From NCBI GenBank assembly GCA_964635905.1, contig CAZWPK010000001.1, positions 68,894 to 132,893 on the forward strand: a DNA stretch of 64,000 nt, in the 5' to 3' direction. The translations under genes and the position numbers were made by a program. Below are positions 14,219-44,198 of the stretch, in pieces (the first letter of the stretch is position 1; each line of letters starts with the position of its first letter). Below the pieces are notes generated by a model. That model was not told the DNA's origin and searched no databases. It saw only the letters and a list, made by a program, of their open reading frames with translations. The DNA comes from an uncultured Pseudomonadales bacterium (GTDB lineage Bacteria > Patescibacteriota > Microgenomatia > UBA1400 > UBA12028).

Positions 14219-14755
14219 ATGGCAGTGACACGTCAAAAATTCTTTCTCGATTCTGGTTTTACTCTTCTTGAGTTAATTGTTGTGATGGCAATTATTGGCA
14301 TCCTCGCAATGCTGGCGGTAGGCAACTTTCAATCCAGTCGAATCAAAGCTAACGATGCACGACGGAAGAGTGATTTAAAACAAATCCAGGCTGCTTTAGA
14401 ACAATATCATGCAGACTTTGGAAACTATCCTGGATCTGCCAGTAATGGAACTATCCTAGGTTGTGGAGCGGGGACGTCAACGTGCAGTTGGGGTGCTGCC
14501 TTTTCGATTACTGGAGGGGCAGTGTATATGAGTAAATTGCCCTCAGATCTGTCTCCTCAACGGTACTATTATGTGGGAAGCACAACAGGTCGATCTTACC
14601 AACTGTTTACCACCCTACAAAATACTCGAGATAATGACAATACCACCTTCACTGCGATTGCACCCAACTGTGCCTCCACGGGGACACTGGCGTGTACCTA
14701 TGGAGTATCCAGTTCAAATGTCACGATCGGTAGTGCTGTATCTACCATGCCATAA
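14219..14755 (+). CDS. type IV pilin / pseudopilin (prepilin-type N-terminal cleavage/methylation domain)
   Basis: N-terminus ...SGFTLLELIVVMAIIGILAMLAVGNFQ (class III signal, G|FTLLE). C-terminal Cys pairs (GCGAGTSTCSWG; CASTGTLACT). Confidence 0.85.
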   Translation: MAVTRQKFFLDSGFTLLELIVVMAIIGILAMLAVGNFQSSRIKANDARRKSDLKQIQAALEQYHADFGNYPGSASNGTILGCGAGTSTCSWGAAFSITGGAVYMSKLPSDLSPQRYYYVGSTTGRSYQLFTTLQNTRDNDNTTFTAIAPNCASTGTLACTYGVSSSNVTIGSAVSTMP

Positions 14756-14765
14756 AGGAAATGCT

Positions 14766-15263
14766 ATGAAGATCAAAGTGCTTTCGCGTTTTGTCCTCCA
14801 ACAGGGGTTTAGCTTAGTGGAATTGATTGTGGTTATTGCGATTATCGGAATCCTTACTGGACTAGTGGTAACCAATCTTTCTGGCGCTCGGGAGCGTGCC
14901 CGTGATGCACGACGAAAAGCAGATCTTCGGGCTATACGGGATGCACTACAGCTGTATCAAAATGATTATGGTGCATTTCCTGGAAATAATGCTTCTGGCC
15001 AAATCTTAGGTTGTGGAGCCTCCGGAACATCTGCCTGTGCCTTTGGCAGTGCATTTAGCGCAAATGGGAATGTCTATATGGGGCGTATTCCGCAGGATCC
15101 ACTCAATCGGAGTACCTATGTGTATCGCTATGCGGCAAATGCAACCGTCGATTATTTGTTGACAACAAACCTAGAAAACATCTCCGATCCGGATATCGCC
15201 AAATCACAAACGCGTTGTAACGTGTCGACAGGTGGAACACAATACGTGGTGTGTAACCAATAG
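14766..15263 (+). CDS. type IV pilin / pseudopilin paralog
   Basis: MKIKVLSRFVLQQGFSLVELIVVIAIIGILTGLVVTNL. Shares the YxxDxGxxPG...ILGCGA...C..G.AFS core with the upstream pilin. ATG 14766 is in frame with the longer track ORF. Confidence 0.85.
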   Translation: MKIKVLSRFVLQQGFSLVELIVVIAIIGILTGLVVTNLSGARERARDARRKADLRAIRDALQLYQNDYGAFPGNNASGQILGCGASGTSACAFGSAFSANGNVYMGRIPQDPLNRSTYVYRYAANATVDYLLTTNLENISDPDIAKSQTRCNVSTGGTQYVVCNQ

Positions 15264-27568: not shown

Positions 27569-30500
27569 CAGTTAAACTCCACATCCTTACTCAAGGCTTG
27601 GTCCAGCGTGACCGTAAACCCACCCACGGTAGTAGTTGTCTCGTCTTGACCTTGTTTGCCAGAGACATACAAGACTTGGTTATTCGTACTGCTCGTTGGT
27701 GTGATATAGATTAACGAGTCCGAGGACACTTGAGTGGTATAAATAATGACATCGGTTTGTCCTTGCTTCAAGACGGCTTTTCCAGTACTTGCGTTTGTTG
27801 CCGATCCACTCGCTGTGGTTGGGGCGCTCAAGGTCAGTTTAGCAAAAGTTGCAGATCCACTGGCATCAATAGAGGCAACTTCTGTCATCCCGCTCTTGAT
27901 GGCAAGTTTGCCACTTTCACTGGAAAGAACCCCACTCTCACTAGCCAGTTGAATCCCTAAAATCTTGGATTCCGGAGCAATCAAGGTTGTTGACAGTTGA
28001 CCCTGGACGGTCACGTCTTGGGTAAAGAGAGCGTCGGTTGTCACCACTAATCCACCTTCGCGATTAAGGGTGAGAGCCCCAGCTAACAGATCTAAGGTTC
28101 CAGTCCCGGTAGCTTGGACATAAAGGGTCGACTCGGTGTCGGAAATAAGATTAATCGAGTTTTTGTCAAATGCCATACTGCTTCCTACAATGAGGGCCGT
28201 ATTGATGTGAGCATTGGTGATACTGGCCGTGCCTTGGACGTTTAAGTATTCGTTAGCAAAAACCGCATCGGCCGAAATCAGATCCGCAGAACTGCTAGCC
28301 TCTGTATTCCAGTCGGCACTGTCGGAAAGCAGATCGGAGACAATCAATTTAATTTCTGGATTCAAACTCGCAAGCAATTCATCCTTTTGTTGTCCGGAGA
28401 TTGTGGAATCCTGAGCCAACAGGGATGAAATGGAAGCTTCTGCGGTAATTAGCCGATTTGCCATTTCGGTGATATTTTTAGCTGTCAAGTTTCCAGAGAT
28501 GGTGGCCTCGGCAGCCGTCAGAATTCCAGAGATGGAGGCTTCTCGAGTATCCACGCGCTCACTCTGGGAAACTAAGTATCCATTTTGTGCAATCGTATCG
28601 ATGACTAAGTTATGCAGACTCTTTCCCCCAACGGTTAACGTGTCTGTTTGAATCGACGAAGATTGAATAGTTCCAGCAATCAACGTGGTAAAGACATTAC
28701 TCGTAGACTCCACAATTTCGGAGAGGGAAGCGGCAATCGAACGAATCAGCGTTTTATTGGCTTCTGCTTCTGGATTACTGGCAAGTTGTGCTAATCCATC
28801 AGCAACCATTTGGCCTTGGTTATCCAGTGCCATCGTGGGATCAGCAAACGATGGATTCACATACACTAAGACGTCACGATCTCCAGAGCCTGGGGTCCAA
28901 GCTTCCAAGGCATATCCGATAATATAGCCTGGTTTATTGGCTTTGGTAGCGCGTCCCGATTGTGTCGAAGGTCGCAGCGGATCTCCGGGGCGAATGGAGC
29001 CTTCTTGATCGTCTAGTTTAACATCGAGCTGTCCAGTGAATCCAACCAAAGCATAACTGGCAGCAATTTGTTCATCGGTTTTCCCTTTAGGGTAGTTTCC
29101 AACAAAACCAGCGCGATTGGAGGTGATACCTAAGAGTTTGTCTCCGGACTGGAATCGACGCACTTTTCCAGTTTCATAGTTAATACCCACGACTTCATTA
29201 GTGGGCAGGTCGCCTTCCTTTTCAAAGTATTCTGCAAGGTCGGCACCCGTAGTTTGGAAGGCAGCTTCACCATAGACTGTTCCATCGGCTCGGACGCGGA
29301 AGACTGAAGCAGCATCAGAACGTGTTAAGGAATTGTACGCGGTAATTAAGTTGTAGGCAGTGGTAGATGATCCAGCCCCTTCAACAGTCAATACACCTGG
29401 ATCACCTTGGGCGCCAGCGGTTCCTACGTTGGTCATGGTGATCGCTCCCGTGTTTCCGTTACGCACCAATAATGAGATGGTATCCAGATCATTGGTGGTG
29501 ATAAATCCACCCGCCACATTAAGATCAGTGGCGGTTGTGCCGGTTACCGATGTGGAGGTGTTACTAACCACAAAGTTCCCCGTACCTGTTAGGTCGGCGA
29601 CGATATCGCCTCCATTGTAGGTGCGTAGAGTCAAGTCGTTACTCTCATAATTTTCTCCGGCTTCAATGTAGAGCGGAGCCTTGGACTTGATAGAAGATGT
29701 CGTTTGATTGGTAAACTGCAAATCATATGCCATTGAGACATCCCCAGGGGCATTAAAGGCGACTGGTAAGGCGGCAGTGATAGCAGTCTCAGAGACAGAG
29801 AAGAGAGATGAGGCCGTGTCAGCAACCGAGAACAAGTTGCCACTGGTACTGCCATTGGTGCCAATGTTGATTCGGAAGAGATCTCCAGTGGCAGACGTTG
29901 CCGATCCCGGACTCCAATCGAAGTTGGCTAAGAAACCGGAAGTAAAGGCTGTAGAGGTAGAGGCGAGGGAGAGACCGGTACCGGAGGAGAGGGCATTAAC
30001 GCTGAGCGCTAATCCAGTCCCTGTAGCCGTTGCAGACTGAATGAGCATACCGGAGGTACCAGCGGTGACTAATTCCAATCGATCATCAGTGGCTTCATCA
30101 TAGCCCAAGGTCCAATCTTGATCCAAGCCGAAAGCAATTCCATTGTCGTCACCCAAGAACAACTGCTCCCATTCCGCAGCTGCAGATCCTAGTGAATTTC
30201 CTTCGGCGGCGCCAGCTGTCAAGTTGGTGGCATTCAGGGCTAGTTCGGCAACAGAATTGATGTAGAAGGTAGCGGTATCTGCCGTGGCTTCTCCTAAATC
30301 GATGTTTTCACCACCTGCAGTGGTAATGTCACCACCGCCTACACTCAAATCTCCAGAGACTGCTGTGGTTGGTGCGGTAATGGTAACAGTTCCATCCGTA
30401 TCGTTATCAATTTTTTCTCCATTCGCAAAGGTGATATCTCCACCAACCCCTGAAAGTGTTAATCCTGTGGTCCCGGAAATGGTAGTATTTCCAGACAGCG

Positions 30501-33500
30501 TGAGATCTCCACCAGAGGGAGCGATGGTCAGATCCCCGTTCGTATCGGTGGTCAAGTCGGAGTAGGTAGACCCATCAGCATAGGTTAGTCGTAATTGAGA
30601 ACCGGAGGTAGCTAAGACATCGAGTTTTCCATCCGGTCCGGTGGTTCCGATTCCCACATTTCCAGAGGTGTTGATCGTTAAGAAGGCATTGGTACCTGGT
30701 GTTGTTCCATCACCAATCTGGAAAAGGTCGTCATCATCCGACCCTGCATCTTCTTGAACACCTAACCAGAAATCGGTATCGGTGGCTGTCTTCGTATCCA
30801 AAATAATGTTGGGATCTGCAGAGTTGATCACCACATCTCCGGTTCCTTGGAAATCAAAGACGGCATTTCCAGTTCCATAGGTTTGGAAGGAAAGGTTGTT
30901 GTTTTCAAATGATTCACCAGCTTGCAGAATCAATGGTCCATAAGACTTGATATAGGCTGCTGTTTGATTGGTAAAGAGGAGATCGTAGGCCATCGAGACA
31001 TCCCCAGCTGCCGTAAAGGAAGTTGGGAGATTTGCAGTGATTGCAGATTCTGAGACCGAGAAGAGGGAAGAACCAGTGTCTTCAATATCAAAGAGATTTC
31101 CAGTTGTTGTCCCATTCGTACCAATATTGATTCTAAAGAGATCTCCAGAGGCTGTTGTGGCTGATCCTGGACTCCAGTCCAAACTTGCAAGACTTCCGGA
31201 AGTTAAGGCTGTAGATGTAGAAGAGAGAGCCAAACCCGTTCCGGAGGAGAGGGCATTAAAGGTGGTGGCAAGACCAGTCCCTGTAGCTGTTGCAGACTGA
31301 ATTAGCATACCGGAGGTACCAGCGGTGACTAATTCCAATCGATCATCAGTGGCTTCATCATAGCCCAAGGTCCAATCTTGATCCAAGCCGAAAGCAATTC
31401 CATTGTCGTCACCCAAGAACAACTGCTCCCATTCCGCAGCTGCAGATCCTAGTGAATTTCCTTCGGCGGCGCCAGCTGTCAAGTTGGTGGCATTCAGGGC
31501 TAGTTCGGCAACAGAATTGATGTAGAAGGTAGCGGTATCTGCCGTGGCTTCTCCTAAATCGATGTTTTCACCACCTGCAGTGGTAATGTCACCACCGCCT
31601 ACACTCAAATCTCCAGAGACTGCTGTGGTTGGTGCGGTAATGGTAACAGTTCCATCCGTATCGTTATCAATCTTCTCACCGTTGGCAAAGGTGATGTCTC
31701 CACCAACTCCTGAAAGAGTTAATCCTGTGGTCCCCGATACAGTCAGGTTTCCAGCTGCGGTAATCGCGCCAGCAGTTAACGTCATGGAATCGGAGGCAAA
31801 GGCGAGAGTTGGATCGGTAGCACCTGCATCAAAGGTCCAGGTAAATCCAGATCCGGATCCATAGGTGGTAGTGCCAACTTCGGTAGAATCCCAGGCAATG
31901 TCATCGGCGTTAATATCAATCGCGGTTCCTTCACCGACATTCAAGGTCACATCGCCGGTGATTCCACCACCCGTTAATCCGGAGCCAGCGACTACACTGG
32001 TAATATCTCCACCGGATCCTGCGATCGCCGCATCCAGGTCATCGAGGACATCTTGCACGGTTGTCGAAGCGGAATTACCAAACTCATCAAAGACGCCAAC
32101 TAACGAAGCTCCAGAAGTAATATTGTCTGTTCCCACATCATTGAGGCCAATGGCACCGATGGTTAAGTCTCCACCGGTATTGATGGTGAGATTCACGACA
32201 TCCGAGACAGTACCGGTGTTAATATCGATACCATTAATTGTTTCAGCAGTTGCTGCGGTGATGGCTCCGGAGGCATCAACTTGGAAGGCGTTTGCGGTAC
32301 CAGAGATTAATGTTCCCGATACATCCAAGTTTCCAGTGATTCCAGTAGAACCAGCAGTAATGGTGAGGGCATCGGAGGCAAAGGCGAGTGTTGGGTCGGT
32401 AGCACCTGCATCAAAGGTCCAGGTGATTCCTGATCCACTTCCGAATGTGGTAGTTCCTAGTTCTGTGGAATCAAAAGTCACGGTGGGACTCCAGGCTTCT
32501 CCAGCGGAACCAGAGACATCGATGGCTGTTCCTTCCGTGAGTCCGGCGATATAATTCCCAGTGGTGTCGGTGCCGAGGGCAACCGAGTCTGAAGCAATGG
32601 TGAGTGCGGTTGTATTAGCTGCACCCAAAGTCGCAGTCACATCACCGGTGAAGGTGTGACCAGAGAGAAGTACCGTACCTGTTAAGTCAGGGAAGGTAAT
32701 GGTCTTGTCCGCACTCGTTGCATCGGCAACGGAGAAGTACGTTTCAATCGTGTTGGCAGTGGCCCCTTCAAAGATGAGTCCTGACACACCAAACTTGGAT
32801 TCATTCGCCGCGAGGGTGTGATCTCCAGATAATGCTGCAGTGAAATCGAAGGCGATGGCATCCGCAGCAACACTAATTCCGGTTCCCGCTCCAATGTTGA
32901 GTGTTAATGCTCCAACTGTTCCACCACCTGTGAGCCCTGATCCTGCAGTGACTCCAGTTGTTGCATACGTTGCCACGTTGTTGGAGTCTACCAGCGTTCC
33001 GGATCGTCCATCGAGGAGTAAGAGTTCTGCTGTAGAGAGAGTTCCACCAGTAACGGTGACATTGTTGGATCCTAATGCCAACGTTCCAGCTGCAGTGATT
33101 GTGCCAGCCGTGAGGGTCAGACTATTGTTACCAGCAGCGAGGGTGGGATCGGTTACTCCAGAGCCATTCAAGGTCCAGGTGAAGTCAGAACCGGATCCAT
33201 AGGTGGTTGTTCCAACTTCCGTCGAATCCCAAGCGATATCATCCGCGTTAATATCGATAGCCGTGCCTTCACCAATATTTAAAGTGACATCTCCAGATAC
33301 TCCTCCGCCTGTTAATCCTGAACCAGCAGTCACAGAGGAGATATCTCCCGCCAAAGCTGTAGTGATCGAGGCATCGAGGTCATCTAAGACATCTTGAACG
33401 GTTGTTGAGGCTGAGTTTGCGAATTCATCAAAAGTTCCAACCAAGGATGAACCAGAAGTAATATTGTCTGTTCCCACATCATTGAGGCCAATGGTTCCGA

Positions 33501-36500
33501 TGGTTAAGTCTCCACCGGCGTTAATGGTTAAGTTCACCACGTCACTGACGGTTCCCGTGGTGATATCAATGCCATTAATTGTTTCGTTGGTTGCAGCAGT
33601 GAGTGTCCCAGTTGTATTTAGGTTTCCGGAAGCATCAACTTGGAAGGCGTTTGCGGTGCCAGACGTCAGAGTACCCGAGACATCAAGATTTCCAGTGATT
33701 CCAGTAGAACCAGCCGTAATGGTGAGAGCATCCGAGGCAAAGGTAAGCGTAGGATCGGTAGCACCAACATCAAAGGTCCATACTACTCCAGAGCCGGATC
33801 CGAATGTTGTCGTTCCCAATTCCGTAGAGTCAAAGGTCACGGTGGGACTCCAACCTTCTCCCGGAGTTCCAGAAACATCGATAGCGGTGCCTTCGGTTAA
33901 GCCCGCGACATAATTACCCGTTGTATCAGTTCCTAAGGCTACAGAATCGGAGGAGATGGTGAGGGCGGTGGTGTTGGAGGCTCCAAGTGTAGCTGTGATG
34001 TCCCCAGTGAATGTATGACCGGATAAGAGAACGGTTCCTGAGAGGTCAGGGAAGGTAATGGTTTTGTCACTGGTGGTTGGATCCGTGACAGTGAAATAGG
34101 TTTCGATCGTGTTTGTGGTTGCTCCTTCAAAGATCAAGCCGGACTGACCAAACTTCGCGTTGTTGGCTGAGAGAGTGTGATCTCCAGAGAGGGCAGCGGT
34201 GAAATCAAAGGCAATATCATTCGCGTTCACAGCAATGCCGGTTCCAGCACCGATATCAAGGGTTAAGGCTCCGACGGTTCCACCCCCAGTTAAACCGGAT
34301 CCGGCAGTGACACCGGTTGTGGCATAGGTTGCCACATTGTTGGAGTCTACTAAGGTACCAGATCGACCATCGAGGAGCAATAATTCTGCTGTGGAAAGTG
34401 TTCCACCTGTAATCGTCAAATTGTTCGAGCCTAGAGCTAGAGTTCCTGCAGTGGTTATGGTTCCAGCAGTCAGTGTCATGGTGTCGGAGCCAAATGCGAT
34501 TGTTGGGTCGGTTGCACCCGCATCAAAGGTCCAGGTGATTCCTGATCCGGATCCATAGGTCGTTGTTCCCACTTCGGTAGAATCCCAGGCAATATCATCC
34601 GCATTAATATCAATCGCAGTTCCTTCTCCAACATTTAGGGTCACATCTCCAGAAACACCTCCTCCGGTCAACCCAGATCCCGCAGTTACCGATGAAATAT
34701 CTCCAGCTGCCCCAGCTGTGATGGCAGCATCTAAATCATCCAAGACATCTTGCACGGTGGTTGAGGCAGAGTTTCCGAATTCATCAAAAACACCAACTAA
34801 CGATGCACCAGAAGTAATGTTGTCGGAACCGACGTCATTTAATCCGATCGTTCCAATCGTTAAATCCCCACCCGCATTCACCGTAAGGTTGACGACATCC
34901 GTGACTGTCCCGGAAGAGATATCGATGCCATTGATGGTTTCTGCCGTGGCAGCGGTGATGGCTCCAGAGGCATCCACTTGGAAGGCATTTCCGGTTCCAG
35001 ATGTCAGTGTTCCAGAAATATCGAGGTTTCCGGCGATCGCGGTAGATCCAGCCGTGATCGTCAAAGCGTCAGATGCAAAAGCAAGCGTAGGATCGGTAGC
35101 TCCCACATCAAAGGTCCAGGTGATTCCTGATCCACTTCCGAATGTGGTCGTTCCCAATTCCGTAGAGTCAAAGGTCACGGTGGGGCTCCAAGCTTCTCCA
35201 GCAGTGCCTGAAATATCGATCGCAGTTCCTTCGGTAAGTCCTGCTACGTAGTTACCGGTTGTATCGGTACCTAGTGCCACGGAATCGGCCGCAATGGTCA
35301 GTGCGGTTGTGTTACTTGCTCCCAAGGTTGCAGTCACATCACCGGTGAAGGTATGTCCCGACAATAGTACTGTTCCTGACAAATCGGGGAGAGTAATGGT
35401 CTTGTCGGTTGTGGTTGGATCTGTAACTGCTAGGTAGGTTTCAATCGTGTTGGCAGTGGCACCTTCAAAGATGAGTCCTGATTGACCAAACTTGGATTCA
35501 GTGGCGGCTAGTGTGTGATCTCCAGAAAGAGCAGCAGTGAAGTCAAAGGCAATCGCGTCAGCGACAACACTAATTCCAGTTCCAGCACCAATATCCAACG
35601 TGACGTCTCCGCTTACTCCGCCGCCTGTTAATCCAGATCCAGCAGTCACGGAGGAGATATCTCCTGCAGAAGCTGTGGTGATGGCAGCATCTAAGTCGTC
35701 TAGAACATCTTGGACGGTTGTTGAAGCGGAATTACCGAATTCATCGAATACTCCAACCAAGGATGCACCGGAGGTAATATTATCTGTTCCGACGTCGTTC
35801 AAGCCAATAGCGCCGATCGTTAAGTCACCACCAGCATTTATCGTCAAGTTGACCACATCCGACACCGTTCCCGTGGTGATGTCGATCCCATTAATTGTTT
35901 CGTTGGTTGCAGCCGTTAATGTGCCTGTGGTGTTTACATTTCCCGAGGCATCAACTTGGAAGGCGTTCCCGGTTCCCGATGTGAGCGTTCCCGATACATC
36001 CAAGTTGCCTGCGACTGCTGTGGATCCAGCTGTGATGGTGAGGGCATCGGAGGCGAACGCTAAGGTAGGATCTGTCGCACCAACATCAAATGTCCAGGTT
36101 ACTCCAGAGCCAGATCCAAAAGTTGTTGTACCAAGTTCGGTAGAGTCGAACGTTACGGTGGGACTCCATGCTTCACCTGCGGAGCCAGAAATATCAATGG
36201 CAGTACCTTCGGTTAATCCTGCAACATAGTTTCCAGTGGTGTCTGTCCCTAGTGCTACAGAATCGGCGGCAATCGTTAACCCCGTCGAGTTATCAGAATC
36301 GAGTGTTGCGGTCACATCACCAGTAAATGTGTGGCCTGAGAGTAGTACAGTACCGGACAGATCAGGGAAGGTGATGGTTTTGTCAGAGGCTGTGGGATCG
36401 GTGATGGCAAAGTAGGTCTCAATCGTGTTCGCGGTTGCGCCTTCAAAGATCAAACCTGATACACCAAATTTGGATTCGTTGGCGGCCAGTGTGTGATCTC

Positions 36501-39500
36501 CAGATAATGCTGCAGTGAAATCAAAGGCGATCGCGTCAGCCGCTACACTGATTCCAGTTCCAGCACCAATGTTGAGTGTTAATGCGCCAACAGTCCCACC
36601 ACCGGTGAGTCCGGATCCTGCGGTAACTCCGGTGGTGGCATAGGTTGCCACATTGTTGGAGTCTACTAAGGTACCTGATCGACCATCGAGGAGCAATAAT
36701 TCTGCTGTGGAAAGTGTTCCACCCGTAACCGTCAGATTGTTGGATCCAAGAGCTAACGTTCCTGCTGCCGTAATGGTTCCTCCAGTGAGTGTGATGCTAT
36801 CGGAGGCAAAGGCAATCGTAGGATCGGTTGCCCCTGCATCGAATGTCCAGGTGATTCCCGATCCCGATCCAAAGGTCGTCGTTCCAACTTCCGTCGAATC
36901 CCAAGCGATATCATCCGCGTTAATATCGATAGCCGTGCCTTCACCAATATTTAAAGTGACATCTCCAGATACTCCTCCGCCTGTTAATCCTGAACCAGCA
37001 ACGACGGAGGTAATATCTCCAGCACCACCGATACCGGTAACATCGATCCAACTTAAGACTCCGGCGCCATCCGTAATCAAGACCTGGTTGGAACTTCCAT
37101 CGTTAGTTGGGAGGGTGTAGGTTACATCTTGGGTTTGGGTTCCAGTTTGGAACACGGTGGAATAGGCATTGTCACCATTGGAGATCAAAGCTAATTTTCC
37201 AGGGACGTTACTACTACCACTGCCAATGTCGGTTCCGATGGTGATTCCTGTTGCTCCGGCGACATGGAGTGCAGAGGAGGGTGTTTGGGTTCCAATTCCT
37301 ACGTTGGCGGCAATGATGTTGACCTCATCCGTCGCTTGATCATCAAACTCAATGCGTCCTGCAGAAGCACCCAATCCTAACCAGTCATCATCCGCAGTGG
37401 CATCGGTAAACACGTCGCCAGTTGCCATCGAACCGACAGTAGTGATGTCGCCAGTTCCAGCACCAATTCCAGTTACCGATTGCCAAGAGAGAACGCCACT
37501 CCCATTGGTAGTGAGCACATAATCACTGGTACCGTCATCCACGGGTAAGGTGAGGGAATAACTACCTGTTTGAGAGGCGCTTGGTTGGAGAGTCACTGAG
37601 TAATCGGTAGCTCCAAGTTCGTTGTAAACAACGATTGATCCGTCTGTTCCATTACTTCCAAAAGTTGCAGTTCCACCGTTCACCGCGAGTGTACCAGACG
37701 TAGAAATGTTTCCAGAACCATCAACTTGGAATGCATTAGCGGTTCCACTTGCTAATGTTCCTGAGACATCGAGATTTCCAGTAATCCCTGTTGAAGTTGC
37801 TGCAATGGTGAGCGCATCGGAGGCAAAGGTAAACGTCGGATCGGTGGCTCCGACATCAAAGGTCCAGACGACTCCAGATCCTGAACCGAACGTGGTTGTT
37901 CCCAGTTCGGTGGAATCAAAGGTCACGGTGGGACTCCAAGCTTCTCCGGCAGTTCCAGAAACATCGATGGCTGTGCCTTCGGTTAAGCCCGCGACATAAT
38001 TACCGGTTGTATCGGTACCTAGTGCCACGGAATCGGCTGCGATGGTGAGGGCGGTGGTGTTACTTGCCCCTAAGGTTGCAGTCACGTCGCCAGTGAACGT
38101 GTGGCCAGAGAGAAGTACCGTACCTGTGAGGTCAGGGAAGGTAATGGTCTTGTCTGCACTCGTTGCATCCGCAACCGAGAAATACGTTTCAATCGTATTG
38201 GCCGTCGCACCTTCAAAGATAAGCCCCGAGACACCAAACTTTGATTCGTTAGCGGCTAGTGTGTGATCTCCAGAAAGAGCAGCCGTGAAGTCAAAGGCAA
38301 TCGCGTCAGCGGCTACACTGATTCCCGTTCCCGCTCCGATATCCAGGGTGACGTCGCCGGAAGCTCCGCCGCCAGTGAGTCCTGATCCAGCCGTTACAGA
38401 AGAAATATCTCCAGCAGCTCCTGCGGTAATGGCGGCATCTAAATCATCCAAGACATCCTGAACGGTAGTGGAATTGGAATTGGTAAACTCATCAAAGACT
38501 CCAACCAGTGAGGAACCGGAGGTGATGTTTGTTGTACCCACATCGTTTAAGCCGATCGTTCCAATCGTTAAATCTCCACCGGCATTGACGGTGAGGTTGA
38601 CGACATCCGTAACAGTTCCGGTGTTGATATCAATCCCATTGATGGTTTCATCGGTGGCGGCACTGATGGTACTGGCTGTGACAATGGCACCAGCCGTTGA
38701 AATAGACCAATCATCCCCACCTGTTAACGCCAGCGTTGTAGAAGCGTTGTTGTTCCCAATCGTAATCACATCCGCAGCTGTACTGTTGGTTGCGATGTTA
38801 ACGGTATCTGCAGCAGAGGAGCTGACACCCGCAATATCGATCGTCTTTCCGGTGGTGTTGTCCCCGATGTTAATTCTCCCCGTTCCTTCAATCAAAATAT
38901 CATTGCGGACATCGGTGTTATTGGCGATGACAAAGTTATCGGCATCCACACTGATGTAATAATCTTCAGCTGCAGAAGTGGTGTCATTAAAATAGAGGGT
39001 AGGATCAGCCTGTTGGAATGAATGATCACTGGTCCACACAAAGGCATAGGCCTGATCAACGGCAACGCTATCCGTTGCAACGGTAATTCCATTTCCAGCT
39101 CCAACATCCAAGACTCCGGTAGTCAAGGTAAGTCCATTTCCGGCAGTGGTACTGGCCAGCTCTAGTGCGGCTGTCCATCCTTCCCCAGCAGTTCCGGTTA
39201 CGGTAATTCCATTGGTACCAGTGACGTTGGCGACATAATTTCCGGTTGTATCGGTACCTAGTGCCACGGAATCGGCTGCGATGGTGAGGGCGGTGGTGTT
39301 ACTTGCCCCTAAGGTTGCAGTCACGTCGCCAGTGAACGTGTGGCCAGAGAGAAGTACCGTACCTGTGAGGTCAGGGAAGGTAATGGTCTTGTCTGCACTC
39401 GTTGCATCCGCAACCGAGAAATACGTTTCAATCGTATTGGCCGTCGCACCTTCAAAGATAAGCCCCGAGACACCAAACTTTGATTCGTTAGCGGCTAGTG

Positions 39501-42500
39501 TGTGATCTCCAGAAAGAGCAGCCGTGAAGTCAAAGGCAATCGCGTCAGCGGCTACACTGATTCCCGTTCCCGCTCCGATATCCAGGGTGACGTCGCCGGA
39601 AGCTCCGCCGCCAGTGAGTCCTGATCCAGCCGTTACAGAAGAAATATCTCCAGCAGCTCCTGCGGTAATGGCGGCATCTAAATCATCCAACACATCCTGA
39701 ACAGTGGTTGACGCGGAGTTTCCAAATTCATCAAACACTCCAACTAGTGAGGCTCCGGAAGTAATGTTATCCGTTCCAACATCGTTCAAGCCAATCGTGC
39801 CAATGGTCAGATCTCCACCGGCATTGATGGTCAAATTCACCACATCCGAGACGGTACCGGTCGTAATATCAATGCCGTTAATCGTCTCATTGGTTGCAGC
39901 GGTGAGTGTCCCCGTGGTATTGAGGTTCCCTGATGCATCCACTTGGAAGGCGTTGGCAGTTCCAGAGTTGAATGTTCCGGAGACATCGAGGTTTCCTGTA
40001 ATTGCGGTAGCGCCTGCGGCAATGGTGAGTGCATCGGAAGCAAAGGTCAGGGTGGGATCGGTGGCACCAGAGCCATCGAAGGTCCAGGTGAAGTTCGAGT
40101 TCGCTCCAAAGATGGTGGTGCCGACTTCAGTCGAATCAAACGTGACGGTGGGACTCCATCCTTCACCTGCGGCACCGCTAATATCAATCGCAGTTCCTTC
40201 GGTGAGTCCGGCAACATAGTTCCCAACGGTCTGGGTACCTAAGTCAACGGCATTATTGGCAATCGAAATATTGGCTTCATTGGACGGTGAGGCGATCAAG
40301 GAAAATTCTGTGCCAAAATCCAAGGTATCCACGTTGGTGCCAACCGCAACATCATTATTCTCCACGTTGACCACGGCAAACGAAGCACCCGTATCGGATC
40401 CACATTCCCACAAACTGGTCGCATCATTCCATTTCAGAACTTGGCCATCCGAACACCCTTGGAGTAATCCAATGCGATCGGTGTCGACTTCTAGTCCCGA
40501 TGCAGATCCCGTGGATCCCGTACCATCGGCCGAAATCAATTGCAGGGCATCGGCATCCAAATATCCTGTGGCGGTTGTCAGCGTAACTGGTGTAGACCCA
40601 GCCAGCAATTGACCACTTACCAGGACGTTTCCACCGGAGAAGACAAATTGATCAGAGGTATTATAGGACAAACTACCAGTATCTCCAGTGGATGAATACA
40701 GCGACAGGGTTGCATCGGCAGTGGCGCCAGTCCCAATCCGAACCAGGTTACTTGCCACATTCACGGAAAAAGAAGAGGCTAGGGTAGAGCCACCAATCGC
40801 AACGTCATCCGTCGTGGCGGTAAGGTAGGAGAGGGTTCCGGAGTCTGTCCACTTGGAAGCACCCGATCCCATGGCAGAGTCAAAATCATCCAAGACGTCT
40901 TGAAGCGTCGTTGCATTGGAGTTATTAAATTCATCATACACACCAATCAAGGCTGCTCCGGAGGTGGTGTTACTGGAGCCGATGTCATTGAGTCCAATCC
41001 CGCCAATCGACAGATCTTGACCCGCTGTTAAGTTCAGAGAACCCGCACTGTTAATGGTTAACACGTCGGTTCCATCCGAAGCTTCGATCACAAAGTAGTT
41101 TGCAGTTTGGGTGCTGTTTCCTTGAATGAGGAATTGGATCTCATCGCTATCGCCATCAATGCCTAGTTTTGCTAAGTCGAGTGTCGAGCCAATAGTCAGA
41201 TCATCCGTGGTTGCGGTCAGATAGGTTACATCTCCACCATCCGTGAAGAGATTTAAGGATGCGCCATCGCCCCAACTGAAGCCACCGGTTGCAGAGTTAT
41301 AGGAGAGCAGCGCCCCATTAGCTGCGGTTCCAGAGACTTTGATATCGACAGCTGCGATACTGCCATCTTCTAACTCAGCGGAAGCAATCGAGGTCCCTAA
41401 ACTGGTTTGCAAGGATCCATTGGAGACTAAGAGTCCCGTGCCGGTCAAGTCCGTAAAGGAATCTCCATTCAGTGAGAGGGTACCAATCGTTGCCGTGGTG
41501 AGTTGGGCGTTGGGACCATACAAGGTGCCGTCCAATTCAATGTCCCCTGAAACGAATAAATCTCCGGCTGCGGAGTCAATACTTCCTGGAGTGGAATCTC
41601 CAATCAACACCGCTCCACCACCCGGATCAATGACAAGATCTCCCGGCGTTGAAAGCGTATTCCCCGCAATGGTTAAGTCTCCGCCTACGGTTGTGGTACT
41701 CGTGGCGGATCCAATGGTGATGAGCTGGGCAATCGACGGGAAGATGGAAGCGGATGTTACGGAGGTGAGCAACTGTCCACTTTCCAGGGTTAAGGAGCCA
41801 GCAATGGTTGCGTCTTTTGCCACACGGAAATTCTCATTGAGCACGGTATCAACGTTGAGCGAGAAGCGTGTGTACTCTAAGGCGGTGCTACCTAAGATAA
41901 CCGACGGCATCTGCACTGATTCCGGAGCTTTTTTGCCCAAAACGAGGAATCTAGGAGCTTGTAATCGAGGAAGACGGAAGCCTAAGGCAATCGTCTGTAG
42001 TTTTGCAAACTCCACACTGGGAGTACTCGTCACGATCAAGGACGAGAGAGCAAGTAGGGCAATACAACACACCGTTACCAAGGCTGGGCGCAGATCCGCA
42101 ATACTGAGGCTTGGAAACGACACCGTGGGGAGATGGAAAGAAGGTAGCCGTAAGGAGAGCTGCTTGTGCGTGGAAACGGAGTGGGTGATCGAGGACCTCT
42201 CAACGAGTGGTGCGGATACGATGGGTGTACTGGTGGTTGCCACTACAGTAGGGGTGACCGCCGTTTCGCCATAGGGAACGGAAGTGGAGACTGGGGCAGT
42301 ATATAACCCGCGTTCGATGGCTTTCTTGTGTTTCTTGAATTCCTGAAGTTGGAGATACGAATAGCGTCGGTGACCTCCCAAAGTTCGAAGCGGTTCTAAG
42401 ATTCCACGATCTTCCCAGCGTCGGAGAGTTTTTTCAGAAACTTTAAGGATCCTGGCGGCCTCTTGAATGGAAAGTGAGCTAGTATCGAAGTGATTTTCCG

Positions 42501-42510
42501 GCAAACTCAT
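27553..42510 (-). CDS. giant (4985 aa) repeat-rich surface protein: N-terminal MerR-type HTH, single TM anchor, long tandem-repeat ectodomain, phage tail-fibre-like modules
   Basis: Uninterrupted 14958-nt ORF. Residues 13-52 (SIQEAARILKVSEKTLRRWEDRGILEPLRTLGGHRRYSYLQL) match the MerR/excisionase HTH. TM at residues 143-162. At least 8 near-identical units of about 410 aa (NETINGIDITTGTVSDVVNLTINAGGDLTIG...). Motifs NVGIGTQTPSSALHV and NVGIGTTGPDGKLDV resemble the fibre-module signature GNVGIGTTxPxxKLxV. Gly/Thr/Ser-rich beta-solenoid-like composition. Confidence 0.8.
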   Translation of the reverse strand: MSLPENHFDTSSLSIQEAARILKVSEKTLRRWEDRGILEPLRTLGGHRRYSYLQLQEFKKHKKAIERGLYTAPVSTSVPYGETAVTPTVVATTSTPIVSAPLVERSSITHSVSTHKQLSLRLPSFHLPTVSFPSLSIADLRPALVTVCCIALLALSSLIVTSTPSVEFAKLQTIALGFRLPRLQAPRFLVLGKKAPESVQMPSVILGSTALEYTRFSLNVDTVLNENFRVAKDATIAGSLTLESGQLLTSVTSASIFPSIAQLITIGSATSTTTVGGDLTIAGNTLSTPGDLVIDPGGGAVLIGDSTPGSIDSAAGDLFVSGDIELDGTLYGPNAQLTTATIGTLSLNGDSFTDLTGTGLLVSNGSLQTSLGTSIASAELEDGSIAAVDIKVSGTAANGALLSYNSATGGFSWGDGASLNLFTDGGDVTYLTATTDDLTIGSTLDLAKLGIDGDSDEIQFLIQGNSTQTANYFVIEASDGTDVLTINSAGSLNLTAGQDLSIGGIGLNDIGSSNTTSGAALIGVYDEFNNSNATTLQDVLDDFDSAMGSGASKWTDSGTLSYLTATTDDVAIGGSTLASSFSVNVASNLVRIGTGATADATLSLYSSTGDTGSLSYNTSDQFVFSGGNVLVSGQLLAGSTPVTLTTATGYLDADALQLISADGTGSTGSASGLEVDTDRIGLLQGCSDGQVLKWNDATSLWECGSDTGASFAVVNVENNDVAVGTNVDTLDFGTEFSLIASPSNEANISIANNAVDLGTQTVGNYVAGLTEGTAIDISGAAGEGWSPTVTFDSTEVGTTIFGANSNFTWTFDGSGATDPTLTFASDALTIAAGATAITGNLDVSGTFNSGTANAFQVDASGNLNTTGTLTAATNETINGIDITTGTVSDVVNLTINAGGDLTIGTIGLNDVGTDNITSGASLVGVFDEFGNSASTTVQDVLDDLDAAITAGAAGDISSVTAGSGLTGGGASGDVTLDIGAGTGISVAADAIAFDFTAALSGDHTLAANESKFGVSGLIFEGATANTIETYFSVADATSADKTITFPDLTGTVLLSGHTFTGDVTATLGASNTTALTIAADSVALGTDTTGNYVANVTGTNGITVTGTAGEGWTAALELASTTAGNGLTLTTGVLDVGAGNGITVATDSVAVDQAYAFVWTSDHSFQQADPTLYFNDTTSAAEDYYISVDADNFVIANNTDVRNDILIEGTGRINIGDNTTGKTIDIAGVSSSAADTVNIATNSTAADVITIGNNNASTTLALTGGDDWSISTAGAIVTASTISAATDETINGIDINTGTVTDVVNLTVNAGGDLTIGTIGLNDVGTTNITSGSSLVGVFDEFTNSNSTTVQDVLDDLDAAITAGAAGDISSVTAGSGLTGGGASGDVTLDIGAGTGISVAADAIAFDFTAALSGDHTLAANESKFGVSGLIFEGATANTIETYFSVADATSADKTITFPDLTGTVLLSGHTFTGDVTATLGASNTTALTIAADSVALGTDTTGNYVAGLTEGTAIDVSGTAGEAWSPTVTFDSTELGTTTFGSGSGVVWTFDVGATDPTFTFASDALTIAATSTGITGNLDVSGTLASGTANAFQVDGSGNISTSGTLAVNGGTATFGSNGTDGSIVVYNELGATDYSVTLQPSASQTGSYSLTLPVDDGTSDYVLTTNGSGVLSWQSVTGIGAGTGDITTVGSMATGDVFTDATADDDWLGLGASAGRIEFDDQATDEVNIIAANVGIGTQTPSSALHVAGATGITIGTDIGSGSSNVPGKLALISNGDNAYSTVFQTGTQTQDVTYTLPTNDGSSNQVLITDGAGVLSWIDVTGIGGAGDITSVVAGSGLTGGGVSGDVTLNIGEGTAIDINADDIAWDSTEVGTTTFGSGSGITWTFDAGATDPTIAFASDSITLTGGTITAAGTLALGSNNLTVTGGTLSTAELLLLDGRSGTLVDSNNVATYATTGVTAGSGLTGGGTVGALTLNIGAGTGISVAADAIAFDFTAALSGDHTLAANESKFGVSGLIFEGATANTIETYFAITDPTASDKTITFPDLSGTVLLSGHTFTGDVTATLDSDNSTGLTIAADSVALGTDTTGNYVAGLTEGTAIDISGSAGEAWSPTVTFDSTELGTTTFGSGSGVTWTFDVGATDPTLAFASDALTITAGSTAVAGNLDVSGTLTSGTGNAFQVDASGNVNTTGTLTAATNETINGIDITTGTVSDVVNLTINAGGDLTIGAIGLNDVGTDNITSGASLVGVFDEFGNSASTTVQDVLDDLDAAITTASAGDISSVTAGSGLTGGGVSGDVTLDIGAGTGISVVADAIAFDFTAALSGDHTLAATESKFGQSGLIFEGATANTIETYLAVTDPTTTDKTITLPDLSGTVLLSGHTFTGDVTATLGASNTTALTIAADSVALGTDTTGNYVAGLTEGTAIDISGTAGEAWSPTVTFDSTELGTTTFGSGSGITWTFDVGATDPTLAFASDALTITAGSTAIAGNLDISGTLTSGTGNAFQVDASGAITAATAETINGIDISSGTVTDVVNLTVNAGGDLTIGTIGLNDVGSDNITSGASLVGVFDEFGNSASTTVQDVLDDLDAAITAGAAGDISSVTAGSGLTGGGVSGDVTLNVGEGTAIDINADDIAWDSTEVGTTTYGSGSGITWTFDAGATDPTIAFGSDTMTLTAGTITTAGTLALGSNNLTITGGTLSTAELLLLDGRSGTLVDSNNVATYATTGVTAGSGLTGGGTVGALTLDIGAGTGIAVNANDIAFDFTAALSGDHTLSANNAKFGQSGLIFEGATTNTIETYFTVTDPTTSDKTITFPDLSGTVLLSGHTFTGDITATLGASNTTALTISSDSVALGTDTTGNYVAGLTEGTAIDVSGTPGEGWSPTVTFDSTELGTTTFGSGSGVVWTFDVGATDPTLTFASDALTITAGSTGITGNLDVSGTLTSGTANAFQVDASGNLNTTGTLTAATNETINGIDITTGTVSDVVNLTINAGGDLTIGTIGLNDVGTDNITSGSSLVGTFDEFANSASTTVQDVLDDLDASITTALAGDISSVTAGSGLTGGGVSGDVTLNIGEGTAIDINADDIAWDSTEVGTTTYGSGSDFTWTLNGSGVTDPTLAAGNNSLTLTAGTITAAGTLALGSNNVTVTGGTLSTAELLLLDGRSGTLVDSNNVATYATTGVTAGSGLTGGGTVGALTLNIGAGTGISVAADAIAFDFTAALSGDHTLAANESKFGVSGLIFEGATANTIETYFSVADATSADKTITFPDLTGTVLLSGHTFTGDVTATLGAANTTALTIASDSVALGTDTTGNYIAGLTEGTAIDVSGSAGEAWSPTVTFDSTELGTTTFGSGSGITWTFDAGATDPTLAFASDALTITAGSTGITGNLDVSGTLISGTANAFQVDASGAITAATAETINGIDINTGTVSDVVNLTINTGGDLTIGAIGLNDVGTDNITSGASLVGVFDEFGNSASTTVQDVLDDLDAAIAGSGGDITSVVAGSGLTGGGITGDVTLNVGEGTAIDINADDIAWDSTEVGTTTYGSGSGFTWTFDAGATDPTLAFASDSMTLTAGAITAAGNLTVSGTTGLTLSGVGGDITFANGEKIDNDTDGTVTITAPTTAVSGDLSVGGGDITTAGGENIDLGEATADTATFYINSVAELALNATNLTAGAAEGNSLGSAAAEWEQLFLGDDNGIAFGLDQDWTLGYDEATDDRLELVTAGTSGMLIQSATATGTGLATTFNALSSGTGLALSSTSTALTSGSLASLDWSPGSATTASGDLFRINIGTNGTTTGNLFDIEDTGSSLFSVSESAITANLPTSFTAAGDVSMAYDLLFTNQTAAYIKSYGPLILQAGESFENNNLSFQTYGTGNAVFDFQGTGDVVINSADPNIILDTKTATDTDFWLGVQEDAGSDDDDLFQIGDGTTPGTNAFLTINTSGNVGIGTTGPDGKLDVLATSGSQLRLTYADGSTYSDLTTDTNGDLTIAPSGGDLTLSGNTTISGTTGLTLSGVGGDITFANGEKIDNDTDGTVTITAPTTAVSGDLSVGGGDITTAGGENIDLGEATADTATFYINSVAELALNATNLTAGAAEGNSLGSAAAEWEQLFLGDDNGIAFGLDQDWTLGYDEATDDRLELVTAGTSGMLIQSATATGTGLALSVNALSSGTGLSLASTSTAFTSGFLANFDWSPGSATSATGDLFRINIGTNGSTSGNLFSVADTASSLFSVSETAITAALPVAFNAPGDVSMAYDLQFTNQTTSSIKSKAPLYIEAGENYESNDLTLRTYNGGDIVADLTGTGNFVVSNTSTSVTGTTATDLNVAGGFITTNDLDTISLLVRNGNTGAITMTNVGTAGAQGDPGVLTVEGAGSSTTAYNLITAYNSLTRSDAASVFRVRADGTVYGEAAFQTTGADLAEYFEKEGDLPTNEVVGINYETGKVRRFQSGDKLLGITSNRAGFVGNYPKGKTDEQIAASYALVGFTGQLDVKLDDQEGSIRPGDPLRPSTQSGRATKANKPGYIIGYALEAWTPGSGDRDVLVYVNPSFADPTMALDNQGQMVADGLAQLASNPEAEANKTLIRSIAASLSEIVESTSNVFTTLIAGTIQSSSIQTDTLTVGGKSLHNLVIDTIAQNGYLVSQSERVDTREASISGILTAAEATISGNLTAKNITEMANRLITAEASISSLLAQDSTISGQQKDELLASLNPEIKLIVSDLLSDSADWNTEASSSADLISADAVFANEYLNVQGTASITNAHINTALIVGSSMAFDKNSINLISDTESTLYVQATGTGTLDLLAGALTLNREGGLVVTTDALFTQDVTVQGQLSTTLIAPESKILGIQLASESGVLSSESGKLAIKSGMTEVASIDASGSATFAKLTLSAPTTASGSATNASTGKAVLKQGQTDVIIYTTQVSSDSLIYITPTSSTNNQVLYVSGKQGQDETTTTVGGFTVTLDQALSKDVEFNWWIIN
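30041..31680. repeat. direct duplication of about 1.26 kb inside the giant gene (type B unit x2)
   Basis: 30041-30420 is base-identical to 31301-31680. It encodes two copies of TISGTTGLTLSGVGGDITFANGEKIDNDTDGTVTITAPTT...GMLIQSATATGTGLA. Confidence 0.75.
32600..40250. repeat. tandem array of near-identical coding repeats of about 1.24-1.34 kb inside the giant gene (type A, at least 7-8 units)
   Basis: Identical stretches can be seen directly, e.g. 38042-38266 = 39281-39505. Repeated protein blocks AT[N/D/A]ETINGIDI[T/N/S][T/S]GTV[S/T]DVVNLT[I/V]N[A/T]GGDLTIG recur. Array boundaries are approximate. Confidence 0.7.
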
Positions 42511-42557
42511 ACATGGGTAAGTTTTTAACTCAGTCTCTTTTCGTTAACCTCTTGATC

Positions 42558-42669
42558 AAATGTCCAATTCTTGTTTTCGTTTTATGTCCAAATTTAGTAG
42601 ACCATTTTTTCGCACCCGGTGTCAAGCATGGAAATTGGACATTTTTATGAGTAAAAGTCCAAGTTTTTA
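42558..42669. promoter_or_regulatory. cluster of four AAATGTCCAA(A/G)TTT-like motifs in the divergent intergenic region upstream of the giant gene
   Basis: aaatgtccaattc (42558-42570), tatgtccaaattt (42583-42595), inverted aaattggacattt (42633-42645), aaagtccaagttt (42654-42666). A fifth copy aaatgtccaagttt lies at 43252-43265. Confidence 0.45.
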
Positions 42670-43427
42670 TAGGCAGATGCAATCCCGTCTTTTTTGTGTC
42701 AAAAACCTCAAATTTGATGGCAAATTGACTAAAAATACTCTGGAAATGAAATGAACTGCATAGTGCTCTGAATACCTAAAAACCTGCGGTAGTAGCGCGG
42801 TAATATCACAAGAATACGAATCTCTTGCTTTCAAGATGTAGACAGGTAAAAAATAGTTATCACCGCAGATTAAATCAGAGATAACGCGGCAGTATTATTT
42901 GCAAGAAGTATGGAAATGGATTTTTTGTGCTGTAACCGAACTGAGTAGCTTTTTTCTTCACTTTAGTATCCAAACAGCACTTTTTTTAAACTGTCTCAAC
43001 ACGTTCTTGCAATCCCCGTACTCAGAAAATGGAGTTTTTCCGACCAAGGGGGTACGCAAACGGGGAATACCGCACGCTCATTCTCCTCGTCTCCCGTCGA
43101 TTGCGGTGGGAAGCCAGCCTATCGGCATACCCAACATATAGCGACATCTACTTTGGGTGCAACCCAATCTCAATGAGTGCGTCGATTACTACGATGCAAA
43201 GAAGAGCTCCTTAATCCAACCGTAGGTTTATGATCAATCTTCTTATAGAGTAAATGTCCAAGTTTCGCGGCACGAAATGTTCTAAATACATTGTGTTCAT
43301 CGGTAATTTAATACGCACTGTCGTTGCGTAAAATGGCCAATCTACTGCCGAACGATGCTTCGGGTATTCATTCCTCGGTGTGGAACCACTTTGCATATCG
43401 ACCAAGAACAACGCTATACTAAGCCTA

Positions 43428-44198
43428 ATGCATCGTATTGGAATCTATCTACTAGCGGCTCTATTTCTTCTCTTCGTTTCTTCGCGCAGTGTCTCTGCTC
43501 AAATAAGTTCATCGGGAGTCGCAACACCCGTGATCGTGGGGGGGACTGCGCCCTCCCTTGGAAGCGTAATCTGTTCTGGAAAGGGAAGTTATGAACTCTG
43601 CTCCAATACCTATGACACTTCTATCTTTGGTGTCGTTTCGACGATTCCTGCAGCCTCGTTTGACATGGAGCCGCAAGAGAATCAGTACTTGGCTGTTACC
43701 CATGGAAAGACGATCGTCCAAGTTGTGGGAAGTGGAGGAGCGATTAAAAATGGAGATTTGCTAACGAGTTCCGAGCGACCGGGGTTTGCCCAGAAAGCCG
43801 ATCGCAATGGCTATGTTTTGGGGATGGCTCTGGAAGATTTTAACCCGAATAGTCCGGATGAAACGACAACGCTGCTCGTGTCCTTAAACATCCATCCCAC
43901 GACCATTTTTATTGACGTCAAGAACAATTTGTTTAAAGCACTTCAACAAGGATTGTCCGCACCGATTTTGACGCCACTAGCTGCCATGCGCTATATGATT
44001 GCGGCGTTGGTCACCGTACTCTCGTTCATTCTTGGGTTCGTCTATTTTGGCCGATTTGCAAAAACCGGAATTGAAGCGATCGGACGAAATCCTCTGGCGC
44101 GGTTTCAAATCCAAACCACTGTTATTTTTAACTTATTCTTAATGGCAGGAATCTTTGTGGTCGGACTCGCGCTCTCGTACTTTATCTTAGTCTTGTAG
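43428..44198 (+). CDS. secreted protein (signal peptide) with a C-terminal two-helix membrane hairpin resembling F-ATPase c-subunit but lacking the ion-binding carboxylate
   Basis: MHRIGIYLLAALFLLFVSSRSVSAQ is the signal peptide. C-terminus GIEAIGRNPLARFQIQTTVIFNLFLMAGIFVVGLALSYFILVL compares with Bacillus-type subunit c [41 protein letters not shown], with the Glu position replaced by Met. Start placed at the Met after the in-frame track extension. Confidence 0.55.
   Translation: MHRIGIYLLAALFLLFVSSRSVSAQISSSGVATPVIVGGTAPSLGSVICSGKGSYELCSNTYDTSIFGVVSTIPAASFDMEPQENQYLAVTHGKTIVQVVGSGGAIKNGDLLTSSERPGFAQKADRNGYVLGMALEDFNPNSPDETTTLLVSLNIHPTTIFIDVKNNLFKALQQGLSAPILTPLAAMRYMIAALVTVLSFILGFVYFGRFAKTGIEAIGRNPLARFQIQTTVIFNLFLMAGIFVVGLALSYFILVL

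Follow-up and report, generated by a model that had tools for sequence, protein, structure and literature searches.

ToxR, TcpP and CadC exemplify transcription factors that remain in the membrane while they bind DNA: a single transmembrane (TM) helix joins a DNA-binding domain, which is N-terminal and cytoplasmic, to a part outside the cytoplasm. Their DNA-binding domains are OmpR-type winged helices, their periplasmic sensor domains are small, and the genes that they activate are others. Here we consider a locus within a 64-kb stretch of DNA (contig CAZWPK010000001.1, positions 68,894 to 132,893; hereafter the window) in which these parts are predicted in the same order, with the extracytoplasmic portion at the C terminus, for the product of a giant gene. 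Unlike in ToxR, TcpP and CadC, the domain at the N terminus is MerR/BldC-like, the portion outside is a giant putative fibre, and the apparent target is the protein's own gene. The spacer between this gene and its divergent neighbour contains five copies of a short motif. We consider it probable that these copies are operator boxes through which the N-terminal domain of the giant protein, tethered to the membrane, would most likely repress the gene that encodes it; what we infer is the binder and its topology, the site at which transcription starts and the direction of control.

The domain has its closest described counterparts in BldC and CarH. BldC of Streptomyces (PDB 6AMA and 6AMK) is a MerR-like winged helix-turn-helix (wHTH) protein that lacks both a dimerisation and an effector domain and binds as one protomer per AATTxxxx(C) repeat (Schumacher et al. 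2018, PMC5859096). Its Lys26 and Arg30 contact bases, its wing residue His46 is placed in the AT-rich minor groove, and its minimal whiI site presents the half-site AATTCGGACA on the bottom strand (PMC5859096). The DNA-binding domain of CarH (PDB 5C8E) recognizes the 11-bp repeat nAnnTnnACAn, again with one domain per repeat, and the CarH operator, which is of plastic design, overlaps core promoter elements and represses (PMC8156234; PMC9304148).

All five copies of the motif lie at the positions and on the strands given in a first-pass annotation of the sequence (Table 1), but the 14-mer consensus AAATGTCCAA(A/G)TTT that it proposed is matched exactly by the distal copy only, the other four being related sequences with one or two mismatches. 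GTCCAA is common to all five and ATGTCCAA to four of them, with the heptamer TTGGACA (reverse complement TGTCCAA) and its A-rich 5' flank (AAAnTTGGACAttt), rather than the full 14-mer, as the functional core. With up to two mismatches allowed, the 14-mer occurs six times in the window compared with an expected 1.8, and five of the six are in the 0.9-kb spacer; the octamer ATGTCCAA also occurs six times, four of them in the spacer, as are all three occurrences of the decamer AAATGTCCAA. Apart from two matches in coding sequence, the box with its T-rich 3' flank is likewise confined to the spacer.

That such recurrence is unlikely by chance, as the same annotation held, was borne out by Monte Carlo simulations in which no motif was presupposed (Markov order 1 and 2, four-base k-mers only, non-overlapping counts). 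The probability that any complex 8-mer appears at least four times in such a spacer is ∼0.002, and that any complex 10-mer appears at least three times is ≤0.0015; in the other 917-nt stretches of the window, no 10-mer attains three copies. The accompanying description of the spacer as AT-rich holds only mildly, with a GC content of 0.44 for positions 42001-43000 compared with 0.51 for the adjoining part of the giant gene, in a window where 1-kb bins span 0.40-0.53.

To collect relatives of the locus, the N-terminal 400 residues of the giant protein were used as a query, after which genome and metagenome contigs were scanned. The 30 loci considered here are the window and 29 others with the same N-terminal layout, the genes of which exceed 1000 residues or run off the contig. 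Those named in public records are from Candidatus Woesebacteria, Levybacteria and other Patescibacteria, which places the window in a genome of the candidate phyla radiation (CPR) type. Long-coverage relatives have 28-41% amino acid identity to the window protein. When 7-mers in the 180 nt upstream of these genes were counted without bias, TTGGACA/TGTCCAA came out on top, being present at 28 of the 30 loci against an expectation of 1.0, and was followed in rank by words overlapping it and then by the -35 word CTTGACA. In nucleotide alignments of the spacer between the window and the related loci, nothing aligns beyond the part that encodes the helix-turn-helix (HTH).

At the loci of 14 long-coverage relatives, the density of TTRGACA in the 200 nt upstream of the gene is 40 times that of the remaining 157 kb, in which it is close to the chance level. 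Furthermore, 22 of the 25 box pairs found in 854 kb are within 300 nt upstream of a gene for an HTH-TM-giant protein (L101 counted), and none of 66 BldC-like loci outside the giant-protein family, mostly from Actinomycetota, has the box. These distributions, together with a fixed offset from the -35 element and a fit to the consensus of the HTH subfamily, support the proposal in the first-pass annotation that the motif is an operator tied to the HTH-bearing gene.

Across 79 sites the consensus reads AAAnTTRGACA, and the bases behind it are T-rich or A-rich. Its flank varies with the wing of the HTH encoded by the adjoining gene: loci with the wing sequence GGHRRY have the form AAAnTTRGACATTT, and those with GNQRRY have AAACTTGGACAAAC, often in 10-bp tandem arrays. 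Judged from sequence, this pattern fits the notion that the wing reads the flank of the box. The fusion of HTH, TM helix and giant protein is common, since a profile search of a representative library returned 127 cluster representatives at E ≤1e-30; among these, ∼18 of those listed are 2815-7954 residues in length, with a match that starts at the N terminus.

Boxes and promoter elements follow a common plan among the relatives, consisting of TTGAC(A/T), 17 nt, a weak -10 element (CTTAAT, ACTAAT or CTAAAT), 3-5 nt and the first TTRGACA. In 17 box/-35 pairs, the distance from the start of the -35 element to the start of the first box is 32-34 nt. The next box is usually inverted, with convergent spacing that peaks at 19-20 bp (12 of 20 convergent pairs), and direct neighbours are 10, 12-13 or 22-24 bp apart. 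These spacings amount to about one or two helical turns and suit proteins bound on one face of the DNA. Arrays of boxes in 10-bp tandem are found at L011, L015, L017 and L098, and the window's own subfamily is dominated by pairs, either convergent at 19-21 bp or direct at 22-24 bp.

The window conforms to this plan. Box P1 begins 34 nt past the start of the candidate -35 element (42625 to 42620), and the direct pair that it forms with P2 has its counterpart in the closest relative, L006, where a direct leader pair is 23 bp apart. Just upstream of the -35 element, U1 and U2 form a convergent pair at 21 bp. Box U1 is preceded by TATAAA (42671 to 42666) and 3 nt, as in the -10/box module of the relatives, and the two together may be a further promoter-operator module, or one that has decayed, since 25 nt separate TATAAA from the nearest TTGACA (42702 to 42697). 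The distal box, D, lies upstream of both genes, ∼745 nt from the ATG of the giant gene and 163 nt from that of the divergent gene, and the 18-mer GAGTAAATGTCCAAGTTT at this box is identical at 17 of 18 positions (94%) to 42649-42666. Distal boxes are also present in the spacers of L004, L005, L006, L008 and L009, and box D may serve the divergent gene or help in looping.

The decamer AACTTACCCA, located 3 nt before the ATG of the giant gene where a Shine-Dalgarno sequence would be expected, has a single exact copy in the window. It precedes the start codon in L006 as well, and most loci have a related CTGCCC(A/T) at the start codon or close to it, in varying reading frames. One possible reading of the decamer is an additional box in degenerate form, another an element of its own. 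Two other readings of the boxes were considered and rejected. An operator of the kind bound by MerR, in which a palindrome occupies an overlong -35/-10 spacer of 19-20 bp, would require boxes elsewhere: none lies between the -35 and -10 elements, the spacer of the relatives is 17 nt, and the first box follows the -10. The readings of TTGGACA as a sigma-54 or extracytoplasmic function (ECF)-type element, made by eye, were abandoned given that the spacing and partner elements are absent and that the box occurs on both strands and in tandem.

The N-terminal domain had been described as a MerR-type HTH, and residues 13-59 do match the Pfam families MerR, MerR_1 and HTH_17. The description stands as far as a MerR-like wHTH is concerned, but the domain is not that of a classical MerR protein: the wHTH is followed by a disordered linker and a TM helix, and there is no coiled-coil dimerisation helix and no effector domain. 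Its type is that of BldC and CarH, by analogy with which each protomer would read one ∼10-bp box. BldC was found by phmmer at E 1.2e-6 and is the best PDB match of the profile of the N-terminal-domain family (E 2.2e-12), with a CarH-like protein next. AlphaFold gives a confident winged HTH for residues 11-66, with a predicted local distance difference test score (pLDDT) of 86-93 over residues 11-60. The matches of this fold in Foldseek are CarH, RacA and BldC; the best is the CarH DNA-binding domain (35-38% identity), and BldC superimposes with a root-mean-square deviation of 1.6 Å over 46-48 residues (38-41% identity).

Lys27, Arg31 and His47 align with Lys26, Arg30 and His46 of BldC and are invariant in a five-sequence alignment (A1). 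The wing sequence RT(L)GGHRRY and the Lys/Arg/His contact residues are shared with BldC. The GNQRRY subfamily has Gln in place of the wing His. Following the helix at residues 52-66, the AlphaFold model has a disordered linker (residues 68-132, pLDDT <50) and then the TM helix, and the same HTH-linker-TM layout was recognized by hydropathy at 15 further loci. This 400-residue model is poor (mean pLDDT 42.6), the HTH and TM helix excepted. Because no signal peptide precedes the HTH in the giant protein, the simplest topology is a cytoplasmic HTH, one pass through the membrane and ∼4800 residues outside. On this prediction, the HTH domain would be cytoplasmic and tethered to the membrane.

How well the box matches what such domains are known to read can be judged from the published repeats. 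AAnTTGGACAn agrees with the CarH string at every specified position (A2, T5 and A8C9A10), which is a fit of sequence only, and AAnTTGGAC(A) agrees with the AATTxxxx(C) of BldC and resembles the whiI site AATTCGGAC, the half-site of which differs from the box mainly at one base. As at BldC promoters, there are several boxes per promoter in variable number, and the 10-bp tandem arrays of the GNQRRY-wing loci may be a further likeness. There are also differences. BldC, a free protein of 68 residues, serves a developmental regulon, whereas the domain considered here is the N-terminal end of a protein that is anchored in the membrane and can reach several thousand residues, and the boxes were found at that protein's gene alone. 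Most often they form a convergent pair at ∼20 bp, whereas BldC binds head-to-tail repeats. CarH repeats are similarly tandem, with an 11-bp period, and CarH itself oligomerises via a B12-binding domain under the control of light; Pfam searches of the giant protein found no B12-binding domain and no effector domain. Literature searches returned no description of an HTH-TM-giant family in the CPR or of a BldC-like domain fused to a giant TM protein.

In the mechanism that we favour, each box would be read by one BldC/CarH-type wHTH domain, made up of the first ∼66 residues of the giant protein, and a disordered linker of ∼65 residues, the TM helix and ∼4800 extracellular residues would keep this domain in the cytoplasm, tethered to the membrane. 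The most economical choice of binder is the domain encoded 50-150 nt downstream of the boxes. P1 is located after the -10, over the predicted start, and P2 is 24 bp into the leader, and when occupied these boxes would block RNA polymerase; repression is predicted because of their positions over the start site and in the early leader. The surface protein would in this way limit its own 27-kb operon through negative autoregulation, and perhaps the divergent partner gene also. Residues 4384-4472 of the giant protein, near the C terminus, match the Pfam Peptidase_G2 intramolecular-chaperone domain, which is self-cleaving and in phage tailspikes accompanies trimeric fibres. A trimeric giant protein would bring three N-terminal HTH domains together.

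A bolder version of this mechanism, which we put forward tentatively and regard as possible but doubtful, is that the family constitutes a new class of regulator-adhesin fusion in the CPR. Here the BldC-type domain, translated from a 15-kb gene and pinned to the membrane, would bind the TTGGACA boxes in cis while still nascent, shut off re-initiation and tether the locus during synthesis of the fibre. Coupled transcription, translation and membrane insertion would keep the nascent domain next to its own promoter. Such an arrangement would provide copy-number control of a costly surface structure, with one polymerase at work at a time, and the state of the extracellular fibre (its assembly, contact with a host or cleavage) might feed back through the tether.

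Several observations weigh against autoregulation by the tethered domain and temper our confidence in it. A scan of 42300-43600 for consensus sigma-70 promoters called none, because the -10 of the window is weak, the candidates being GTCTAC at 17 nt or CTAAAT/TACTAA at 20-22 nt from the -35. The promoter was instead assigned from the conservation of TTGACA and from the constant spacing between this hexamer and the box among the relatives, from which the transcription start at P1 is likewise deduced. The orientation of the boxes with respect to the gene varies, being direct in the window and L006, direct in the opposite orientation in L005 and convergent in most others, and the arrangement documented for BldC and CarH is the tandem head-to-tail repeat rather than convergent pairs 20 bp apart. 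The consensus strings of these two proteins carry little information, so that the fit of the box to them is suggestive but no proof, and the correlation between flank and wing could merely reflect shared ancestry. Finally, N-terminal HTH-TM proteins do not always bind DNA, as illustrated by RodZ, the HTH of which binds MreB.

The main rival to autoregulation is a soluble regulator of the same type: a separate BldC/MerR-like protein, encoded elsewhere, would bind the boxes, the giant gene would be one target of its regulon, and the HTH of the giant protein would do something else. The sequence covers 64 kb of the genome, leaving room for a paralogue elsewhere, and the reach of a tethered domain is limited. 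Small BldC-like proteins are widespread (PMC5859096), and 13158 library proteins match the profile at E ≤0.001, many of them presumably HTH-only. We nevertheless regard this explanation as unlikely, given that no second BldC-like HTH is encoded in the window, that the box accompanies the HTH-TM-giant gene at 28 of 30 loci without enrichment in 157 kb of flanking DNA from 14 genomes, and that the flank variants follow the wing variant of the HTH encoded by the adjoining gene.

A structural role, in which the domain binds the boxes to anchor the locus or nucleoid to the membrane or to the base of a surface fibre and any effect on transcription is incidental, would have its model in RacA. A soluble protein that DivIVA recruits, RacA has numerous binding sites close to the origin. 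The protein from Bacillus subtilis (PDB 5I44) is a MerR-like wHTH protein without the MerR coiled coil that ties DNA to a location at the cell envelope, and this chromosome-anchoring protein is among the best structural matches of a domain that is itself predicted to be membrane-tethered. RacA is not known as a promoter-specific operator system, however. It binds a GC-rich site as a symmetric dimer (PMC5859096). The boxes described here number only 2-5 per locus, all at the gene's own promoter, and stand at a fixed offset from the -35 and -10 elements, over the predicted start, which is the constraint expected of an operator and not of an anchoring site; we therefore think anchoring improbable.

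Still less credible to us is a hairpin of RNA (or DNA) in the 5' leader, formed by the inverted copies and serving to stabilise or attenuate the long mRNA, in which case the repeats would be arms of a stem instead of binding sites for a protein. Many relatives have TTRGACA...TGTCYAA downstream of the -10 with an offset of 19-20 bp, and the U1/U2 pair of the window can fold (-7.2 kcal/mol, z -2.3). The leader boxes of the window, L006 and L005 are direct repeats, however, the 10-bp tandem direct arrays elsewhere cannot pair, and the predicted start falls inside the first arm. Moreover, the predicted leader of the window is less structured than its shuffles (z +1.6), and the sole variable position of the box lacks covariation between arms (G-C 8, A-C 6, G-T 5, A-T 2). 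At gathering thresholds, Rfam identified two tRNAs only in the window, and nothing in 42450-43480 at E ≤1. Least credible of all is chance recurrence in an AT-rich spacer, or a family of dispersed short repeats with no regulatory role. Four of the five copies are imperfect, and 8-mers occurring at least four times are not rare in simulated spacers once low-complexity k-mers are admitted. Complex k-mers give the low probability quoted above, the rest of the window holds the motif only at chance level, and conservation upstream of related genes at 28 of the 30 loci excludes chance as far as computation goes.

Table 1. Positions of the boxes, promoter elements, coding regions and genes in window numbering. 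For boxes, the strand is that of TTGGACA; copies of the 14-mer are written for the opposite strand, which is given in brackets.
Feature	Coordinates	Strand	Remarks
Box P1	42582..42595	-	TTGGACA 42591 to 42585 in gene direction; over predicted transcription start; 14-mer copy TTATGTCCAAATTT (+), 2 mismatches
Box P2	42558..42571	-	TTGGACA 42567 to 42561; direct repeat 24 bp downstream of P1, in predicted 5' leader; 14-mer copy AAATGTCCAATTCT (+), 2 mismatches
Box U2	42631..42644	+	TTGGACA 42635 to 42641, inverted with respect to gene; downstream arm of convergent pair with U1; 14-mer copy AAATGTCCAATTTC (-), 2 mismatches
Box U1	42653..42666	-	TTGGACT 42662 to 42656; upstream of -35; 14-mer copy AAAAGTCCAAGTTT (+), 1 mismatch
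Box D (distal)	43252..43265	-	TTGGACA 43261 to 43255; 14-mer copy AAATGTCCAAGTTT (+), exact
Candidate -35 of giant-gene promoter	42620..42625	-	TTGACA; TTGAC(A/T) at the equivalent place in nearly all relatives
Candidate -10 region	42592..42602	-	gtctactaaat; between -35 and P1, placed by alignment to relatives
AACTTACCCA element	42514..42523	-	3 nt before giant gene ATG
wHTH coding sequence	42334..42474	-	BldC/CarH-like, residues 13-59 of 4985; proposed box binder
Single predicted TM helix	42025..42102	-	Residues 137-162; from AlphaFold secondary structure and pLDDT
Giant gene	27553..42510	-	4985 residues; first gene of ∼27-kb block
Open reading frame	22646..27568	-	Overlaps giant gene by 16 nt
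Open reading frame	17840..22501	-	Part of ∼27-kb block
Open reading frame	15665..17800	-	Part of ∼27-kb block
Divergent gene	43428..44198	+	Secreted or membrane protein of 256 residues; shares control region with giant gene

The minus-strand gene block of ∼27 kb that the first-pass annotation had placed under this control region is real and consists of four open reading frames (ORFs) spanning 15665-42510. The giant protein comprises the HTH, the linker, the TM helix and a very large extracellular part of ∼4800 residues, a topology that is predicted, and its gene is followed on the same strand by genes for two LamG-rich proteins (1640 and 1553 residues) and a TPR protein. Just past the end of the block is a type IV pilin-like gene with N_methyl and T2SSG motifs (14571-15263, plus strand). 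In the syntenic relative L004 (10001-20262), the HTH-TM protein is encoded by a separate gene of 532 residues, followed by a gene of 2867 residues; the N-terminal module is thus separable from the giant part, since what is two genes in L004 is a single ORF in the window.

The divergent protein has a signal peptide and C-terminal hydrophobic helices, and a Pfam search with it matched no family. At least 23 related loci have this gene next upstream, on the opposite strand (37-64% identity), and a domain resembling the protein is found within the giant ORF of L004 (31% over 113 residues). Downstream of the divergent gene are iPGM and then the ATP synthase operon. DNA identical to that of the window was found in three Logan assemblies. 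Samples SRR31757422, SRR31051132 and SRR31757420 carry this strain. The records for L006, L008, L009, L011-L013 and L017 are titled 'uncultured Gammaproteobacteria' or 'Pseudomonadales', labels that look wrong given the gene content and relatives of these loci.

The remainder of the spacer has features of its own. At 917 nt, it seems long for a compact genome of the CPR type; that of L006 is ∼850 nt. A second motif, (T/A)GCGGA(G/A)AATAT(AG), is present at ten loci in one to three copies each, always facing the divergent gene, and may be the promoter of that gene or a site for another factor. It is present in the window in a weak version at ∼42790-42812 (GCGCGGTAATATCAC) and in L004, L008, L009, L086-L090 and L097. 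At five loci of the GNQRRY-wing subfamily (L011, L013, L014, L015 and L098), a tandem GATAAGATTAT repeat (GATAAGATTATGATAAGATTAT) stands directly upstream of TTGACA; it was not found in the window. Between 42700 and 43250, the spacer has no Rfam match, no nucleotide conservation and no convincing ORF, and an 80-residue ORF with a TTG start at 42899-43141 has no Pfam match.

Bacteria of the CPR, or Patescibacteria, have tiny genomes with few recognisable regulators and rely on large surface proteins thought to mediate contact with their hosts. To our knowledge, almost nothing is known about how the genes for their giant surface proteins are controlled. The locus described here supplies two leads on a widespread family of such genes, a cis element that can be tested and a protein domain that may bind it. 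An operator of the BldC/CarH type, with one protomer per box, is of a known kind; what would be new is its being read by a domain that is membrane-tethered, directed at its own gene and carried by a giant surface protein. If the N-terminal domain does bind its own promoter, the box AAAnTTGGACA, paired at ∼20 bp, could be used to find such promoters in metagenomes, and the domain would be the first of the BldC type to serve as a membrane-tethered module, making the giant protein a structural component of the surface with a built-in transcription factor.

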